A stretch of 40,856 nt of DNA, taken from a virus (taxonomy: Duplodnaviria > Caudoviricetes). The notes beneath the pieces are model-generated. The model was given only the letters and a program-made list of their open reading frames with translations. It was not told the origin of the DNA and did not search any database. The stretch spans positions 1 to 40,856 of IMG/VR virus record IMGVR_UViG_3300044840_000044; one strand, given 5' to 3'. The translations under genes and the position numbers were made by a program. Positions 24,277-40,835 of the stretch are shown one piece after another; the first letter of the stretch is position 1; every line of letters starts with the position of its first letter.

Positions 24277-25452
24277 TTGCCAACCAAACCCCTAGCAGAT
24301 GAAGTGATTTTAGAAGCCGTCAGGCTTCGCACAGAGCACCCCACAGCGGCCCTCGCCGCCAAGGCAGGCGGTATCACCCCCCGCGAATTAACCCAGCGGC
24401 TGGTACGCGCTGCCCAACGTGGCCTTGATGGCTCGGTACCGAAGCCCGCACCGCCCGGCTTCGTGGTCAAGGGAACCACGACGCTATACAAGCCCGATGG
24501 TTCCACCGTTCTGCAATGGGTTCGCAACACCGACGAACCGTCGCTTGAAGATATTGCGGCGGCAATGCGGACGGCGTTCGATGGTTTCAAAGGCTTCGGC
24601 AGGCCGATAGCGCGGCCCGCCCATGCCCGCGCCGATCTGTGCACGCTCACCCCGATTGGTGATCTGCACGTCGGCATGTACGCATGGGAAGGCGATAGCG
24701 GCACCAACTGGGATTTGAAGATCGCCGAAGCCGTGATCGGTGAAGCCGTCGACCAGACGGTGTTGAGTTCCGAAAAATCCGGTCTGGGGATTGTGCTGTT
24801 CGGCGGTGATTATTTTCATGCCGACAACAAGAACAATGAGACCTCGAAATCCCGCAACCCGTTGGATGTCGACGGCCGCTATGACAAGGTCATTGAAGTC
24901 GGCACAAGGCTGGCGGTGCGGATCATTGATCGGCATCTGGCGCACCATGACAAGGTGTTGGCCCGCGCGCTCAAGGGCAACCACGATGAGCATTCATCAG
25001 TCGCGCTGGCGTGGTTCCTGAAAGCGTACTACCGCAACGAACCCCGCGTCACCATCGATGTCGATGCATCGCTGTTTTTCTGGCACCGCTTCGGCGAAGT
25101 CATGATCGGTTCAACTCATGGCCATGAAACCAAGCTGGCGAAACTACCGCAAGTGATGGCGGTTCGCCGCGCGGCAGACTGGGGCGCGACAAAGTTTCGC
25201 TTCTGTCACGGCTTCCATCTGCATCACGCCGACAAGCTCGGCTTTGAAGATGGCGGCTGTATCTCGGAAGTGCATCAGACGATCACGCCGCAGGACACGT
25301 GGAATTTCGGCCGTGGCTTCCTGTCAGGCCAATCGCTCTCATCGATCACCTATCACAAGAACGCAGGCGAGGTCGGGCGCAAGCGCACGGTGATTATGGA
25401 CAATGTCGTATTGCCCGCGAACGATAACATCAAGAAACAAAAGGCCGCGTGA
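24277..25452 (+). CDS. Calcineurin-like metallophosphoesterase with N-terminal HTH-like region
   Basis: GDLHVG, GGDYFH, KGNHD, THGH, GFHLHH motifs. TTG start after GAGG. Confidence 0.85.
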   Translation: MPTKPLADEVILEAVRLRTEHPTAALAAKAGGITPRELTQRLVRAAQRGLDGSVPKPAPPGFVVKGTTTLYKPDGSTVLQWVRNTDEPSLEDIAAAMRTAFDGFKGFGRPIARPAHARADLCTLTPIGDLHVGMYAWEGDSGTNWDLKIAEAVIGEAVDQTVLSSEKSGLGIVLFGGDYFHADNKNNETSKSRNPLDVDGRYDKVIEVGTRLAVRIIDRHLAHHDKVLARALKGNHDEHSSVALAWFLKAYYRNEPRVTIDVDASLFFWHRFGEVMIGSTHGHETKLAKLPQVMAVRRAADWGATKFRFCHGFHLHHADKLGFEDGGCISEVHQTITPQDTWNFGRGFLSGQSLSSITYHKNAGEVGRKRTVIMDNVVLPANDNIKKQKAA

Positions 25453-26160: not shown

Positions 26161-26240
26161 TTTCCGGTCGGGCGGCAGGCTCATGACCTTTGCCGCCTAA
26201 AGCAATAACAAGACTCATTGACACGAACTCACAATTGTTG

Positions 26241-26265
26241 CGCCGCCTACGGGCGGCGATTTTTT
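26241..26265 (+). terminator. Terminator-like hairpin just upstream of nrdJ
   Basis: CGCCGCC-TACG-GGCGGCG-ATTTTTT. Confidence 0.65.
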
Positions 26266-26286
26266 CGTTCTAGACAGGTCAAATAT

Positions 26287-27984
26287 ATGAATGGTCCGCA
26301 AACCGCTTTCGCTGAACAACTGCACGCCGAAAAATATCGAACCCATGGGGAGTCATTCAAGGAAGCGATGAACAGGATTGCCGCCGCGCTGACCGACAAG
26401 GAGGAAGATTTCAAACCGTTCCGCGATCTGCTGCTGGATATGCGGTTCCTGCCAGCCGGTAGGGTGCAGGCGGCGGTCGGGGCCACGCGACGAACCACCG
26501 CGTACAACTGCTTTGTATCGGCCGCGATTCAGGACTCGTTCGTTACCGGCAAGGATTCGATCATGGATTGCGCCGCACAGGCGGCGATGACGATGCGGAT
26601 GGGCGGCGGTATCGGTTACGATTTCTCGACACTGCGACCGCGCGGCGCGATGATCAAGAAGCTGCAATCGAAAAGCTCTGGCCCGATTTCGTTCATGGAA
26701 ATCTTCGACGCGGTCGGCCGTGCGACCTCATCGGCCGGGCACAGGCGCGGCGCACAGATGAGCGTGTTACGGGTCGATCATCCCGACATTGAAGAATTCA
26801 TTCACGCCAAGCAGACGCCGGGCTATCTGACCGGCTTCAACATGTCCATCGGGATTACCGACAAGTTCATGGAGTCGCTGGCCAGGAATCGGCCGTTCGA
26901 ACTGACATTCGACGGCGAGGTACACGGCGAGGTCGACGCGGCCCAGCTTTGGGAAATGATTATGCGCTCAACATGGGATTGGGCCGAACCCGGCGTGCTG
27001 TTCATCGACAGGATTAATGCGATGAATAATCTGTGGTACTGCGAAACGATTGCGGCGACCAACCCATGTGGCGAACAGCCGTTGCCGCCCTATGGCGCGT
27101 GCCTGCTCGGTTCGTTCAATCTGCCGAAATACATCACCGGCCGGTCGTTCGAATGGGATCAGTTCCGAAGGGACATCCACATAGCCGTTGCGGCAATGGA
27201 CCGGGTCACCGATGTGTCGCTGTATCCACTGGACGAACAGGAAGCCGAAGCCAAGAGCAAGCGCCGCATGGGGCTTGGCGTCACCGGGCTTGCCAATGCC
27301 ATCGAAGCGATTGGCCCGCGCTATGGCACGCGGGATTTCGTCATCATGGAGTCGCATATTCTTGACGTGTTGCGCGATGAAACCTATCGGGCATCGATGA
27401 TGCTGGCGCGCGAACGCGGTTCGTTCCCGCTGTTCGATGCTGACCGCTACGCGTGCGGCAACTTCATCAAGACCTTGCCGCGTGAACTGCAAAACGACAT
27501 CAGGGAATACGGCATCCGCAACTCGCATCTGACCTCGATTGCGCCAACCGGCACGATCAGCATGGCCGCTGACAATGTATCCAGCGGCATCGAACCGGTG
27601 TTCGCGTTGCGCTCCAATCGCATCGTCAACATGAGCGATGGCGTGCGTGAGGTCGTCAATGAAGATTACGGGCTGGCCCAGTTCGGCGTCGAGGGTAAAA
27701 CCTGCGACATGGTCACGGTGCAGGAACATCTTGATGTGCTGATCGCGGCGGCCTTGCGGGTCGATAGCGCGGTCAGCAAGACATGTAATGTACCGTCCGA
27801 TACACCGTGGTCCGAATTCAAGGCGGCCTATGTGCAAGCCTATGATCGCGGTGCCAAGGGCTGCACTACCTATCGCGTCGGTGGCAAGCGCGAAGGCATC
27901 CTGACCGCCGCAAACGACAACGGCCCCGGTGAAGGGGCCGCGTGTGTCTATGATCCGGCGACTGGGGCTAGGTCGTGCGAGTAG
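26287..27984 (+). CDS. nrdJ: Ribonucleotide reductase, class II (adenosylcobalamin-dependent), compact with no ATP cone
   Basis: FLPAGR, NCFV, GGGIGYDFS.LRP, RRGAQM, TNPCGEQPLPPYGACLLGS, IAPTGTIS, KGCTTYR, C-terminal Cys pair. No small-subunit gene adjacent. Confidence 0.88.
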   Translation: MNGPQTAFAEQLHAEKYRTHGESFKEAMNRIAAALTDKEEDFKPFRDLLLDMRFLPAGRVQAAVGATRRTTAYNCFVSAAIQDSFVTGKDSIMDCAAQAAMTMRMGGGIGYDFSTLRPRGAMIKKLQSKSSGPISFMEIFDAVGRATSSAGHRRGAQMSVLRVDHPDIEEFIHAKQTPGYLTGFNMSIGITDKFMESLARNRPFELTFDGEVHGEVDAAQLWEMIMRSTWDWAEPGVLFIDRINAMNNLWYCETIAATNPCGEQPLPPYGACLLGSFNLPKYITGRSFEWDQFRRDIHIAVAAMDRVTDVSLYPLDEQEAEAKSKRRMGLGVTGLANAIEAIGPRYGTRDFVIMESHILDVLRDETYRASMMLARERGSFPLFDADRYACGNFIKTLPRELQNDIREYGIRNSHLTSIAPTGTISMAADNVSSGIEPVFALRSNRIVNMSDGVREVVNEDYGLAQFGVEGKTCDMVTVQEHLDVLIAAALRVDSAVSKTCNVPSDTPWSEFKAAYVQAYDRGAKGCTTYRVGGKREGILTAANDNGPGEGAACVYDPATGARSCE

Positions 27985-36730: not shown

Positions 36731-36749
36731 TGGTCAATATTGCTCACTT
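36731..36749 (-). promoter_or_regulatory. Motif site 2
   Basis: Minus strand AAGTGAGCAATATTGACCA, an identical 19-mer to site 3. Confidence 0.75.
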
Positions 36750-36973
36750 CATTGACCGGTGCCCAAATATTGAGTCATCAGCCGTTGCCACATCGATGGC
36801 GGTGCTGCGGGTCGATCAGTCCCGATCATTTCCGCCGACATCGCCCAATCGGTGCTTTCGCACACCGGACAGGCATGGAATTTCACGGTCGGCATTTGCG
36901 TGACGTTGTCACGCCTGATCGCCAACATATGTTCCGTCCGCGCGCACCATGGCCGACAATTTGAACAGGTCAT
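36749..36973 (-). CDS. Small zinc-ribbon protein (74 aa)
   Basis: GGGAGG SD. CSNC...CPVC. Confidence 0.7.
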   Translation of the reverse strand: MTCSNCRPWCARTEHMLAIRRDNVTQMPTVKFHACPVCESTDWAMSAEMIGTDRPAAPPSMWQRLMTQYLGTGQ

Positions 36974-37028
36974 TGGTTTCACCTCCCGTTATTTGCAACC
37001 ACATTACCAAAAGACCGCCTAGGCGTCA

Positions 37029-37047
37029 TGGTCAATATTGCTCACTT
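37029..37047 (-). promoter_or_regulatory. Motif site 3
   Basis: Minus strand AAGTGAGCAATATTGACC, then ATGACG-17 nt-TAATGT with TGn before the -10. Confidence 0.75.
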
Positions 37048-37053
37048 TCAAAC

Positions 37054-37449: not shown

Positions 37450-37752
37450 TTATTTCAGCCATTCGGGCAACGTTTTTACAATGACGCCATCATAAACCAC
37501 CGTTGCGGCGGTCGGTGTCAGACTGACGGTGTACCGATAGGCGCGTGTTCCTTCGCCCATACAGGCCACAATCGTTCGCTTACCATGGGCGTCTTCACCT
37601 TCCGCGCGCCACGACACCAGCCGTGCACAGTTGAAGCCTTGATCTTGGATGATCCTCTCGACGGCTTGTCGACTCTCTGGCGTCCCTAACTGGGGTTCGG
37701 CGGCATAGGCTGACGTGGCGAACAGGATGATGGCCGCGATGATCTTGAGCAT
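37450..37752 (-). CDS. Secreted or periplasmic protein (100 aa)
   Basis: GGAG SD. Signal peptide MLKIIAAIILFATSAYA-A. Two Cys. Confidence 0.75.
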   Translation of the reverse strand: MLKIIAAIILFATSAYAAEPQLGTPESRQAVERIIQDQGFNCARLVSWRAEGEDAHGKRTIVACMGEGTRAYRYTVSLTPTAATVVYDGVIVKTLPEWLK

Positions 37753-37767
37753 TGGTGGACTCCATTA

Positions 37768-38193
37768 TCAGGGCTGCAATTGATTCAGATCGGTCAGGCG
37801 GAAGTCTTGCTCAAACCAGACGCCGATCAGTTGGTTGTTTTTGGGGGCGGTACGGCGGAAGGTATAGAGGGTTTTGCCGACCGGGCGCACCACATAGGCG
37901 CGTAGCTCGGCCGGGTACCAGCCAACGATTACGTCGCAATCCTTGGCGGTGATGACCGGCCATTGCTTGCCGCCCTTACGGTCGACGGTGGACGAACCGG
38001 CCATGATGATCGACCCGTTGTCGCCGTCTCGCATGGTCTTGATCTGGATACGTGACAGCTTGCCATCCCAGTACGCAATCAGATCGAAAGAGTGATCGTG
38101 ACCGATGGCCGGGGTGAAGACGCTGGCCCCAAGGCGGGCGAGGGTCAGCATGACTTCGGCTTCCGACAGCGACCCGCGCGCCGTGGTCTTCAT
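37768..38193 (-). CDS. PD-(D/E)XK endonuclease (group I intron-associated, I-Ssp6803I-like family), freestanding
   Basis: MKTTARGSLSE..L...G..VF.P...FDLI......RIQIKT...CDVIVGW. Confidence 0.82.
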   Translation of the reverse strand: MKTTARGSLSEAEVMLTLARLGASVFTPAIGHDHSFDLIAYWDGKLSRIQIKTMRDGDNGSIIMAGSSTVDRKGGKQWPVITAKDCDVIVGWYPAELRAYVVRPVGKTLYTFRRTAPKNNQLIGVWFEQDFRLTDLNQLQP

Positions 38194-38198
38194 AGGGA

Positions 38199-38273
38199 TG
38201 GTGCCCGGCAGCGGGATTGAACCGCTGGCCTCGTCATTACCAATGACGCGCTCTACCACTGAGCTAGCCGGGC
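38199..38273 (-). tRNA. tRNA-Thr(GGT), complete, CCA encoded
   Basis: GCCCGGC TA GCTC AGTGGTA GAGC G CGTCA TTGGTAA TGACG AGGCC AGCGG TTCAATC CCGCT GCCGGGC A CCA. All four stems pair. Confidence 0.96.
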
Positions 38274-38290
38274 TAATGGGGGGTGATTCT

Positions 38291-38538
38291 AGAGAACCGA
38301 CAGAGAACGGATTCCCCGGATTTCCCCCGGATCGGTAGGTTTTTTCATGTTCTGTTCTGCGGTTTCGTGCAGTTTGGCGTCTGGAGCATTTTGCAGGAAG
38401 TGCCTCTGTAGCAAGGGTTTCTGCGATTTCAGTCATACCAGTCGAACCCTTACCAATGGTAAGGACTAAAGTTAGAAGTGCCTGCGCCGCAATGGTTTCT
38501 TGAATTTGTTATTTGCGCTCCCCGGATTTTCCCCGGAT
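38291..38538. other. Putative intact attP: arm-type repeats flanking a core
   Basis: TCCCCGGATTT(C/T)CCCCGGAT at 38313-38332 and 38519-38538 (19/20 identical). Core ACCCTTACCAATGGT at 38446-38460 overlapping palindrome CCTTACCA-A-TGGTAAGG. Adjacent to the int 3' end. Confidence 0.7.
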
Positions 38539-38541
38539 ACG

Positions 38542-38571
38542 AAAAAGCCCCGCCTCCTTTGGAGACAGGGC
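38542..38571 (-). terminator. Intrinsic terminator after int
   Basis: Minus strand GCCCTGTCTCC-AAA-GGAGGCGGGGC-TTTTT. Confidence 0.7.
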
Positions 38572-38610
38572 CATTCCGGTGAGCCGCACTTCAATATGGC
38601 GCGATCTATA

Positions 38611-39861
38611 TCACGCCGCCGCCTTCCTCGCCAGTCGTTTTGTACGCAACGCCGTGGCTGCCGCCGCCTTGGCCTTTACAGCGGCCCGCTTCGCATTGCG
38701 GACCTTATTCGCGGCGAGGTCATTCCGCGAACCCTGTTCGCCCGCCAGCTTGCTGGCATGGGCGAGAGGGTCAAGCATCCAAGGCGCATTGGCCCATGCC
38801 TTGATGACCGGCAGCTTGTTGATGGCTTCGATCTGTGCCCGCTGTGGCACGTGGGTGTAGTTGTGACTCATGTCGTCAACGACGTGGCCCATGATCTGAT
38901 CCTTGACGTAAGGATTCACGCCAGCAACGATCAATCCGGTGGAACAGGAATGCCGCCCGGTGTACGGCGCGATATCCATGATCTTAGACCGCTGCCGCGC
39001 GCCGTTGATCGCGGATTTCATCTGGCCGGAAACCTTGTCGTCTTCTGCCACCGGGTATGGCTGGCCACGCGGAGTCCGAAACAGGATACCGCCGCGCTTG
39101 ACCAGCGCCGTGAACATCGGCACCAAGACTTCCGCCAGTGGAACGCCGCGCGGTTCTTCCGTCTTGGTGTTCCAATCGAGATTGATCCACCGCCCCTTGA
39201 TGTTGACTGCCGGGGCTTCAAGTTTGAACACTTCGCTGGGTCGCATGCCACTATAGAAAATCGTGGTCAGTACCATGGCCGGTGCCGGTGACATCGCCAA
39301 CACGAACGGCGCGGCATGTTCGAACTCGACTGCGAAGCTACCGACACGCCGCTTCATTTCAGCCTTGACGAGTCCGTTATATCTTCCGTTCTTCCATTTC
39401 GGGCGAGTCCAATCACGCGGATCGGCAAAGCCATCGCTCTTTGCGAGATTATAAACCGCAATGAACGGCGCGTGACACTGCCGGTTGACCGTGTCGGGCT
39501 GGCAATTCGGATAGAGTTTACGACCGGCCGCATCCAACTCGGATTGCGTGATAGATCGCAGCGTGCGTTCACCGAATTCGCCAAGCAGCAACGTGCCCTT
39601 GTTGGTGGCTGCATTCCATTCTCCCAGATAGATGGCCTCACCTTCGTTGTTGAGATAAGCCAAGGCGGCTTCCATGAACGTGCAGTTCTTGACCTCGCCG
39701 TGAACGCTTTCGTTCAGCCATTTAGCTTCCGTCCTGATGCGGATGCCTTCTGCCGCTTTCTTGTTGTTAGTTTTTGTAGAGAAATTGAGTTCGCCGCTAT
39801 TTCCGATGGTACCACGGACATAGTAGTTCTTACCGTCGGGTTGATAGAGCTTGAGTGACAT
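38611..39861 (-). CDS. int: Tyrosine integrase
   Basis: SGMRPSE (R), NTKT (K), YTGRHS (Y in place of H in HxxR), MGH, HNYTH (catalytic Y). N-terminal arm-binding-like YYVRGT. Confidence 0.93.
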   Translation of the reverse strand: MSLKLYQPDGKNYYVRGTIGNSGELNFSTKTNNKKAAEGIRIRTEAKWLNESVHGEVKNCTFMEAALAYLNNEGEAIYLGEWNAATNKGTLLLGEFGERTLRSITQSELDAAGRKLYPNCQPDTVNRQCHAPFIAVYNLAKSDGFADPRDWTRPKWKNGRYNGLVKAEMKRRVGSFAVEFEHAAPFVLAMSPAPAMVLTTIFYSGMRPSEVFKLEAPAVNIKGRWINLDWNTKTEEPRGVPLAEVLVPMFTALVKRGGILFRTPRGQPYPVAEDDKVSGQMKSAINGARQRSKIMDIAPYTGRHSCSTGLIVAGVNPYVKDQIMGHVVDDMSHNYTHVPQRAQIEAINKLPVIKAWANAPWMLDPLAHASKLAGEQGSRNDLAANKVRNAKRAAVKAKAAAATALRTKRLARKAAA

Positions 39862-40019
39862 CGTTGCACCTTCCATAGCTCGATCAGGTCGTCATCCGAA
39901 AATCTGATCGAACGACCGAACACTGAACACAGACCGTGGCGCTTGGCGATTTTTGCGGTGAGCCGGGGGGTAATCTTTAACTCGGCTGCGGCCTCATTGA
40001 GGCTATAGACTGGAATCAC
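39714..40019 (-). CDS. xis: Excisionase-like HTH protein overlapping the int 5' end
   Basis: YSLNEAAAELKIT..GRSIRFSDDDL (MerR/HTH_17-like). GGGAG SD and GTG start. Confidence 0.78.
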   Translation of the reverse strand: MIPVYSLNEAAAELKITPRLTAKIAKRHGLCSVFGRSIRFSDDDLIELWKVQRCHSSSINPTVRTTMSVVPSEIAANSISLQKLTTRKRQKASASGRKLNG

Positions 40020-40033
40020 TTATGACCACTCCC

Positions 40034-40064
40034 TATATATCGGGGATTTTTTCGAATAATGCAA
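40034..40064 (-). promoter_or_regulatory. Leftward promoter for xis-int
   Basis: Minus strand TTGCAT-17 nt-GATATATA, the same design as the 30650-30678 promoter. Confidence 0.6.
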
Positions 40065-40085
40065 GCCCTCATTTGCCCCAAAAAA

Positions 40086-40130
40086 GTGAGCAATATTGAA
40101 CATGCCATAGCCGCCAAGGCGTGCAATAAT
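40086..40130 (+). promoter_or_regulatory. Motif site 5 plus rightward promoter of the Crp/Fnr gene
   Basis: GTGAGCAATATTGAAC-ATGCCA-17 nt-AATAAT with TGn before the -10. Confidence 0.7.
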
Positions 40131-40160
40131 CCCCATGACAACCATTCATCCGGGGACACC

Positions 40161-40835
40161 ATGCCGAAAGATTTCAATGTTTCCGCCTTCCTCGAAAAAG
40201 TATCGGCGGAAAAAAACGTCATCACCTATAAAAAAGGTGAGACGATTTACAAGCAGGGTGAGTATGCGAGCGCGGTCTATTACATTCTGAGCGGCAGGGT
40301 CAAAATCACGGTGGTGTCGGAGCAAGGCAAGGAAGCGGTTGTTGGCATGCTTGAGCAGGGCCAGTTTTTTGGCGAAGGCGCTTTCATCAGGGGTCACGTT
40401 ATACGTGTTGCTACCACCACGGCCATGATGCCAGCCAAAATCATCTGTGTCGAAATCGACAAGATGAAAGAACTGATGCTCAAGGAACCGGCGCTTACCA
40501 ATCTGTTCGTCATGCATCTGGTCAAGCGCAACATGCGGATTGAAGAAGACCTCACCGACCAGTTATTCAATCAGAGTGAAAGGCGGCTGGCCCGGTTGCT
40601 GCTAATCTTGGCTAACGTCGGGACCGATAACAAACCAACGCCTATCGATGGCAAGATCAGTCAGGAAACCTTGGCGGAAATGATCGGCACCACGCGATCA
40701 CGCGTCAGCCATTTCATGAACAAGTTTCGCAAGCTCGGCTTCATCAAATACAACGGGCAGATTGAAGTGCGGCGGTCGTTGCTTGATGCCGTGTTGCATG
40801 AACGGCCGGAAATTGATTCAAAGAAAAAGAATTAG
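40161..40835 (+). CDS. Crp/Fnr-family transcriptional regulator
   Basis: cNMP-binding domain (IYKQGE..VYYILSGRVK..GQFFGE..RVAT) plus HTH SQETLAEMIGTTRSRVS. GGGGA SD before ATG 40161. Confidence 0.93.
   Translation: MPKDFNVSAFLEKVSAEKNVITYKKGETIYKQGEYASAVYYILSGRVKITVVSEQGKEAVVGMLEQGQFFGEGAFIRGHVIRVATTTAMMPAKIICVEIDKMKELMLKEPALTNLFVMHLVKRNMRIEEDLTDQLFNQSERRLARLLLILANVGTDNKPTPIDGKISQETLAEMIGTTRSRVSHFMNKFRKLGFIKYNGQIEVRRSLLDAVLHERPEIDSKKKN

Follow-up and report, generated by a model that had tools for sequence, protein, structure and literature searches.

The window analysed here is the whole of a 40,856-bp virus record. Its genes are those of a temperate tailed phage, among them genes for head and tail proteins, lysis, a repressor and an integrase. 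On the minus strand, a gene resembling xis, int, a terminator-like hairpin, a tandem repeat, a recombination core, a second tandem repeat, a tRNA-Thr(GGT) gene and a PD-(D/E)XK_5 nuclease follow one another in that order (Table 1). Many members of this integrase family occupy attachment sites in tRNA-Thr(GGT) genes, as judged from the family loci. A similar hairpin followed by a run of T was recognized by eye in two related loci, L001 and L173.

Table 1. Features of the integration module, listed in minus-strand order
Feature	Position	Strand	Basis or remark
Small HTH_17 gene, likely excisionase (xis)	39858..40007	-	Pfam PF12728, E 6e-4, under the curated cutoff; role inferred from position
Tyrosine integrase (int)	38611..39861	-	PF00589, E 3e-13; phrog_1
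Intrinsic-terminator-like hairpin between int and attP	38546..38572	-	Sequence scan
Tandem repeat in the P arm with predicted arm-type sites for Int	38519..38538		Offsets -89/-79, as in relatives
Imperfect direct repeat, P-side copy, predicted accessory-factor site (function inferred)	38475..38507		76% identical to 38397-38429
attP core CC-A / TTGGTAA / G-GG	38447..38459	-	Stretches of 10, 13 and 13 bp about the core are common to attL and attR in relatives
TTGGTAA, the anticodon loop and predicted 7-bp overlap	38456-38450	-	Within the core
222-codon open frame: P' arm, whole tRNA and nuclease domain	37768..38436	-	Starts 13 nt past the core
Imperfect direct repeat, P'-side copy, predicted accessory-factor site	38397..38429		Pair of 38475-38507
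AGAACA-type repeat of the P' arm	38348..38359	-	Likely DNA site overlaid by the nuclease frame
Tandem repeat in the P' arm with predicted arm-type sites for Int	38313..38332		Offsets +117/+127-128, as in relatives
Complete tRNA-Thr(GGT) with encoded CCA and stem CGTCA/TGACG; the replacement tRNA, lying inside the nuclease frame	38199..38273	-	ARAGORN
PD-(D/E)XK nuclease domain, I-Ssp6803I family	37768..38193	-	PF11645, E 1e-14; own ATG at 38193

The first-pass annotation of this DNA had described a minus-strand core reading ACCA (38460-38457), TTGGTAA (38456-38450) and GGGT (38449-38446), flanked by two near-identical 20-bp repeats, with no tRNA 3' half after it and with a complete tRNA-Thr(GGT) of different anticodon stem downstream. 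We found that all of its coordinates were right. The two repeats (38313-38332 and 38519-38538) are 95% identical, no 3' half was found downstream of the window core, and ARAGORN placed the sole tRNA of the window at 38273-38199, 176 nt past the core, with the stem CGTCA/TGACG. The annotation had also likened the flanks of the core to the stem of an E. coli-type tRNA-Thr(GGT), and here it needs correcting. The flanks are instead core half-sites for Int, of the form CC-N / N-GG; the anticodon stem in the closest hosts is CTCCA/TGGAG or CTCCC/GGGAG. Among the P flanks compared, C was present at -2 in 60/60 and at -3 in 46/60, with T at -3 in 5/60. All of the free P' flanks (12/12) had G at +2 and +3.

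The tandem repeats are not a product of chance, because in the window, L001, L173 and L166 they stand at corresponding distances from the core (-79/-78, +117 and +127/128, with -89 in the window and L001), as expected of arm-type sites. These distances correspond despite the fact that the repeat sequence of the window is unlike that of the other three. On the plus strand, all 4 copies of the octamer CCCCGGAT in the 40.9-kb window fall inside the 20-bp repeats, and 2 more on the minus strand lie elsewhere. The AGAACA repeat is also present in the P' arms of classic elements (L004, L085, L089, L180 and L225), and it is therefore likely to be a DNA site. A scan of viral contigs for the arm motif gave 22 stretches, including one on the L001 contig and one that is a classic attP. 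RNA folding of the stretch between core and tRNA was unremarkable (z -0.97). As a separate observation, the core in the window lies within a near-perfect palindrome (38463-38447, minus strand) with 8-bp arms around one base, and the same is true of L162; the palindrome yields an inverted, one-mismatch copy of the overlap.

We looked at related elements to see what becomes of the host gene. With an alignment of 78 integrases we collected the best 80 loci from each of three sources: genomes (of 86), viruses (of 83) and metagenomes (of 84). Sixteen distant loci (L066-L081; 24-27% identity) were excluded from the att analysis and the tree, and the check for both halves of the host gene covered 55/64 genome loci (L041, L046 and L059-L065 were left out). 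In many family members, TTGGTAA is followed by the 3' half of tRNA-Thr, the classic pattern of a restoring attP or of its junctions. Members that match the window are a minority. Of these, L001, L173, L162 and L166/167 are free attPs. Integrated forms were present on 11 contigs, namely L002 and ten metagenomic contigs (L163-165, L169, L172, L175, L179, L181, L214 and L230). On these contigs a 5' half of the host tRNA-Thr leads into TTGGTAA, and the P' arm comes next, followed by element tRNA and nuclease. Several of them are near-identical, so they represent approximately six elements. In the modules of three phages (the window, L001 and L173) and of G002, int lies upstream on the same strand; in the others compared (L162, L166 and L002) it lies downstream and is convergent.

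The host gene was split in 3/55 genomes with a family integrase (G001, G002 and G003). Its 5' and 3' halves were separated by 15.6 kb, 11.7 kb and 71 kb, and the core shared by attL and attR was 10, 13 and 13 bp, respectively. ARAGORN called no tRNA in the 6 junctions and 3 tRNA-Thr(GGT) in the 3 sites rejoined in silico. The earlier expectation that the host tRNA would be split at the anticodon loop and not restored thus held in these lysogens. With a lenient pattern, no complete Thr(GGT) gene other than the element's own was found in the three genomes, which are MAGs in which a second host copy could be missing. The elements in G001 and G002 carry window-type modules, and we call them satellite-like because they encode primase/helicase-type genes, or a small terminase and a prohead protease. 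The G003 element carries a complete tRNA behind int at its attR end. In the other 52/55 genomes the host gene was intact, and 49 of 50 of them had a single complete copy. A gapped pattern joining a 5' half to a second tRNA at 120-180 nt, a range too short for most spacers, gave one match in 401 genomes, in which the gene is intact. Two candidates were set aside: a match to the TGACG stem in G010 proved to be an attR-type 3' half and not a module, and the lack of a 5' match in G020 was a fault of the pattern, the gene there being intact.

The disruption and replacement proposed by the first-pass annotation is therefore supported by the junctions of relatives, whose integrases are ~51-62% identical to that of the window; lysogens of the window phage itself were looked for and not found. 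Annotated phages had distant integrases only (22.7-29.9%), and one DNA sequencing run, possibly the source of the window, contained no joint at the core. These relatives also bear on the possibility that integration takes place at another site or leaves the host gene restored, and that the tRNA is an ordinary supplement for lytic growth, ACC accounting for 299/687 Thr codons in 20 phage genes. The window attP has no 3' half, 200 positions of a 276-nt alignment are identical between it and the attP rebuilt from the ends of the G001 element, and the window falls in a clade with split lysogens (see below). We regard this possibility as largely refuted and very improbable, even granting that the junctions seen are all from relatives, that most family members restore the gene or occupy other sites, and that the gene was intact in nearly all of the genomes checked.

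We found that the elements with both a tRNA and a nuclease form one clade on the integrase tree (146 tips, integrases of <300 aa, including L179, L214 and L230, being left out). The clade has a support of 0.95, is nested among classic elements, contains the window integrase and holds both phages and satellite-like elements of 12-16 kb. L006, L187 and L146 were placed outside it. Because the clade is nested among classic elements and these three lie elsewhere, breaking and replacing the host gene is likely to be a derived trait that arose at least three times. L146 has a bare attP-like core (G455:C1:7436-7446) that lacks a 3' half; a search of its contig, which is 81% complete, found no tRNA-Thr(GGT). 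L006 and L187, and the unrelated modules L281/L346/L351/L270, replace the tRNA; no such nuclease was found in them. With unrelated integrases the layout is the same, and the distance from core to tRNA is 22-27 nt (L281/285/305, L346 and L351) or ~90 nt (L270).

Several other loci deserve mention. L281, L285, L305, L346 and L351, which belong to a second integrase clade and have a bare core, carry TGTGCCA-type repeats on both sides, such that the tRNA seems to lie inside attP. Phages at L268, L289, L293, L324 and L344 have a single tRNA-Thr(GGT) ~0.8 kb before the integrase, preceded in the first three by AT-rich, promoter-like sequence. A low-GC provirus record (L303; G458:C1:37577-37688) has a tRNA-Thr 5' half with its loop and a complete tRNA 63 nt further on. 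Ten loci (L269, L273, L279, L287, L311, L322, L330, L339, L342 and L280) contain central or 3' fragments of tRNA-Thr that are not preceded by their own 5' half. These are on records of ~75 kb and two shorter ones, mostly with no tRNA called, and are possibly archaeal-type att sites.

We found that an open nuclease frame runs through the whole tRNA gene. The frame, overlooked by the first-pass annotation, begins at 38436 and crosses the P' arm repeats and the entire tRNA. The tRNA is contiguous (75 nt); there is no group I intron, and the frame passes through the tRNA itself. We compared 18 contigs that had been reached through either the integrase or a split gene. In 17/18 the frame was open from core to nuclease. 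The phase of the tRNA was constant, with core-to-tRNA spacers of seven lengths (156, 165, 176, 177, 191, 192 and 241 nt). In 15/17 open frames a start codon lay no more than 17 nt from the core (starts 11-17 nt behind it), and in 15/17 there was no start codon between the end of the tRNA and the first helix. A 39-codon block of the leader was free of stops in nine modules, as against 4/1000 column shuffles. The pN/pS of the leader was 0.64, within the shuffled range of 0.86 +/- 0.19 and hence no sign of significant selection on its amino acids; pN/pS was 1.07 for the tRNA part and 0.31 for the nuclease domain. Given the lack of stops and a leader pN/pS no different from shuffles, it is likely the openness of the frame, and not the peptide, that selection maintains. 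A tRNA-derived peptide was recognized by eye in 38/54 homologous proteins, a set that depends on gene callers. The window and L162 have an ATG directly behind the tRNA, and other members have GTG starts within the tRNA or ATG starts downstream, which indicates that read-through is not strictly required.

The domain at the end of this frame is predicted to be a nuclease of the I-Ssp6803I type. The PF11645 match is above the cutoff, and the domain agrees with PDDEXK_5 in both sequence and fold. The best Foldseek match of the predicted structure was I-Ssp6803I (2OST; E 4e-9, TMt 0.70); a PDB match by sequence alone was weak (E 0.17). Most of residues 86-222, the domain, was modelled with confidence, and the leader mostly with low confidence. 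Among 52 sequences, D118, Q131 and K133 are invariant and E92 is present in at least 90%; we take these to be the catalytic residues. Distant homologues of the nuclease were at tRNA genes in 4/5 viral loci, and in some distant proteins, such as P0208 and P0236, a tRNA-like peptide is joined to the domain with no Met between them.

The tRNA-nuclease module is rare in the genomes searched. In the family of G001, 1/401 genomes had the nuclease (G001 itself); another genome sample had 1/173, a distant nuclease without an adjoining tRNA; and a sample of the class had 0/401. Annotated phages yielded distant nucleases only, and plasmids yielded none. Distant members of the PD-(D/E)XK_5 family are often encoded directly behind a tRNA, and the N-termini of P0195, P0199, P0208, P0236, P0247, P0268 and P0288 resemble translated tRNA genes of several isotypes. 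In the homologues P0169, P0170 and P0329 (the last from Rhizobium laguerreae), an embedded peptide, IGSEE, implies a loop that differs from TTGGTAA at its last base.

The first-pass annotation had inferred that integration places the phage tRNA under the host promoter, and our results support this indirectly. The host tRNA-Thr(GGT) gene is preceded by a motif, TTGCGC-N12-TGTGGCA, that lies upstream of attL. We built a weight matrix from part of 19 host upstream regions; it models one promoter type and scored 16-24.6 in all 19 regions, its own source set. The 14 P' spacers scored -1.3 to 6.1, and 22-95 of 100 shuffles did as well. A scan of 37600-38800 for the sigma-70 consensus found none. Because the motif is absent from the P' spacers and a terminator stands behind int, capture of the host promoter is favoured, with the reservation that the phage arm could hold a promoter of another type. 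We consider it unlikely that a promoter within the P' arm drives the element tRNA independently of integration, as for Fionnbharth, with its place behind attP a matter of history. The 60 nt ahead of the tRNA vary freely in length, and in an unrelated clade just 22-27 nt separate core and tRNA. Such a promoter nevertheless has a precedent in the Fionnbharth tRNA, which has its own (PMC10865867), and the matrix is limited to one promoter type. Promoter-like sequence does precede the element tRNA of L187, which faces away from the host promoter (score 18.9; 0/100 shuffles as good), and, weakly, that of L006 (7.3; 7/100 shuffles as good).

The variant anticodon stem of the element tRNA had been explained earlier as a change that stops Int from using the phage's own tRNA as attB. 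In partial support of this, all of the element-type stems seen as DNA (6/6) depart from the consensus of the Int half-sites, with T or G at -3, where C predominates, and A or C at +3, where G is invariant in the free P' flanks. These six include the stems of L006 and L187, which arose separately. However, this stem is a common natural variant. It matched 86 viral stretches, mostly ordinary tRNA clusters or chromosomal tRNAs, and it is present in the attR-type remnant of G010. Natural P flanks themselves sometimes have T at -3, five protein-only homologues (P0135, P0137, P0139, P0147 and P0149) appear to embed host-like stems that keep the consensus, and in L303 one stem is common to the broken and the complete tRNA. 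An account in which the stem was altered specifically to escape Int, and nothing else in the module matters, also leaves the conserved nuclease frame unexplained, and we think it rather unlikely. The variant stem probably serves both purposes, making the tRNA a poor substrate for Int and sparing it from the nuclease.

Based on these results, we interpret the locus as the attachment site of a temperate phage. Its Int is predicted to cross over in the anticodon loop of the host tRNA-Thr(GGT) without rebuilding the gene, the spare tRNA likely takes the place of the broken one, and this spare tRNA lies in a predicted nuclease frame. The exchange between attP and attB would very probably take place at TTGGTAA, so that attL receives the 5' half of the host gene and attR its 3' half, as seen in the relatives. 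The element tRNA, which lies ~160-240 nt behind the core, would then probably be transcribed from the host promoter; in the free phage, the terminator would separate it from int. The same transcript would carry the nuclease frame. Excision of the tRNA would destroy this message, and nuclease levels may well be low and mainly confined to the time after integration.

The target of the nuclease is predicted to be the empty host gene. I-Ssp6803I recognises a 23-bp pseudo-palindrome (PMC3384342); the anticodon arm is such a sequence, and both host-type halves occur together only there, hence the prediction. The intact host arm would be absent from attP, attL, attR and the variant tRNA of the element. 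By analogy with its family, the nuclease might cut the intact host anticodon arm, and so penalise cells that lose the element and convert sister sites that are still empty. This scheme is consistent in itself: the nuclease would be switched on only after its target had disappeared, and its substrates would be sister chromosomes or those cured of the element. As a whole, we tentatively suggest a homing and anti-curing device that is armed by integration, in which a 430-bp stretch is at once attP arm, replacement tRNA and nuclease leader and element-free copies of the chromosome are cut; this fuller reading is somewhat doubtful.

The main alternative is that lysogeny is plainly tRNA-dependent and the nuclease is a passenger. 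A selfish homing endonuclease of tRNA clusters, moving among phages and elements, would have brought the tRNA with it and would have no role in maintenance, and read-through would be a matter of supplying a start codon. In favour of this account, phage tRNA genes contain or adjoin distant homologues that are free-standing, and several homologues have tRNA-derived N-termini of other isotypes. Damaged nuclease frames were present in L162 (a stop), L179/L214 (no in-frame start) and G002 (frameshifts), and the independent break-and-replace modules do without a nuclease. T4 SegB offers a precedent, including a proposed damping of expression by tRNA processing (PMC2330249). We consider the passenger account quite possible, but it does not readily explain why the nuclease is kept across the whole integrase clade, in phages and 12-16 kb elements alike and under the constraint given above, or why its frame starts so close behind the core (11-17 nt), a place that comes under a promoter on integration. 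If the device suggested above is real, maturation of an essential tRNA would keep the nuclease scarce, and the module would act much as a homing tRNA intron does, but by way of a protein, and would be common to phages and satellites.

A Salmonella threonine tRNA with a modified U34 reportedly could not cover its whole codon box. The need for Thr(GGT) is unproven, because for other amino acids, namely Pro, Val and Ala, a tRNA with a cmo5U-modified U34 can read the entire codon box (PMC6103715).

The module is a variant of a known form of lysogeny. tRNA-dependent lysogeny was described in 2024 for actinobacteriophages (Fionnbharth of cluster K4, cluster L, Cain, Gaia and Gordonia clusters CQ2/DL; PMC10865867). 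There, as here, a tyrosine integrase uses an attB in a tRNA gene, the gene is not rebuilt and a same-isotype tRNA replaces it; the trait also had repeated origins among classic relatives. The common core is 8-17 bp in the actinobacteriophages (PMC10865867) and 10-13 bp in the relatives of the window. In contrast to those phages, the elements studied here have alphaproteobacterial hosts, use Thr(GGT) and include satellite-like elements of 12-16 kb as well as phages. The window tRNA lies directly behind attP, within reach of the host promoter, whereas the Fionnbharth tRNA overlaps a gene on the opposite strand (PMC10865867). The window tRNA is nested in a nuclease frame on the same strand; the accessible part of the actinobacteriophage account describes no nuclease (PMC10865867).

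Within Alphaproteobacteria, two Lo5R7ANS-like prophages of Sinorhizobium meliloti disrupt tRNA-Leu(UAG) centrally, and the prophage copy replaces it (PMC11476347). The window module resembles these cases in that an alphaproteobacterial tRNA gene is broken in the middle and replaced by a prophage copy. It differs in isotype, and the accessible part of that report gives no attP anatomy, promoter capture or nuclease (PMC11476347). The same source has tRNA-Thr(GGU) as an integration hot spot at which the gene is kept (PMC11476347). tRNA-dependent lysogeny in S. meliloti and actinobacteriophages is cited by PMC12429752. A literature search of main texts, thin in subscription journals, found no relevant report of tRNA-dependent lysogeny combined with a nuclease.

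The nuclease and its nesting have separate counterparts. Like I-Ssp6803I, the window nuclease belongs to the same Pfam family, shares the fold and the conserved acidic and Q-x-K residues, and is associated with a tRNA anticodon arm, here as a predicted target. Unlike I-Ssp6803I, it is not part of a group I intron; a site-specific integrase inserts the element, and the spare tRNA stands in for splicing. In Alphaproteobacteria, selC (tRNA-Sec) is nested in the selB frame, and tRNA processing was proposed to repress the protein (PMC8124441). Both arrangements have a whole tRNA in a conserved open frame on the same strand. However, selB and selC are housekeeping genes of the chromosome, and the tRNA there lies at the C-terminal end, whereas the window tRNA is part of a mobile element, lies upstream of the catalytic domain and shares its frame with recombination sites. 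T4 SegB also has tRNA genes as DNA targets (predicted in our case), and maturation of the tRNA has been proposed to limit its expression (PMC2330249), as we propose here. SegB is a GIY-YIG enzyme with a T-arm target in a lytic tRNA cluster without integration; in the window, a PD-(D/E)XK nuclease accompanies a single tRNA beside attP.

It is well supported that this variant of tRNA-dependent lysogeny is real and that the nesting of tRNA in nuclease frame is conserved; its purpose is proposed only. The split genes document tRNA-dependent lysogeny in Alphaproteobacteria directly, at the level of genomic junctions. The trait arose at least three times within one classic integrase family and extends to small satellite-like elements, and our analysis suggests a role for the tRNA-linked PD-(D/E)XK nuclease. 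If the model is correct, it would represent a new self-locking route for mobile elements, and the module would be a compact, marker-free and self-maintaining integration module for rhizobia-like hosts.

The window has other features of note. For a 41-kb temperate phage, it encodes a ribonucleotide reductase large subunit (26218-27984) and a DNA repair exonuclease (24277-25452). A Crp/Fnr-family regulator (cNMP_binding and HTH_Crp_2; 40059-40835, plus strand), divergent from xis-int at the end of the contig, could be phage cargo. A 22-nt sequence occurs at 37027-37048 and, inverted and 95% identical, at 40083-40104, with a similar copy at ~36733-36752; together these resemble a set of repressor operators.
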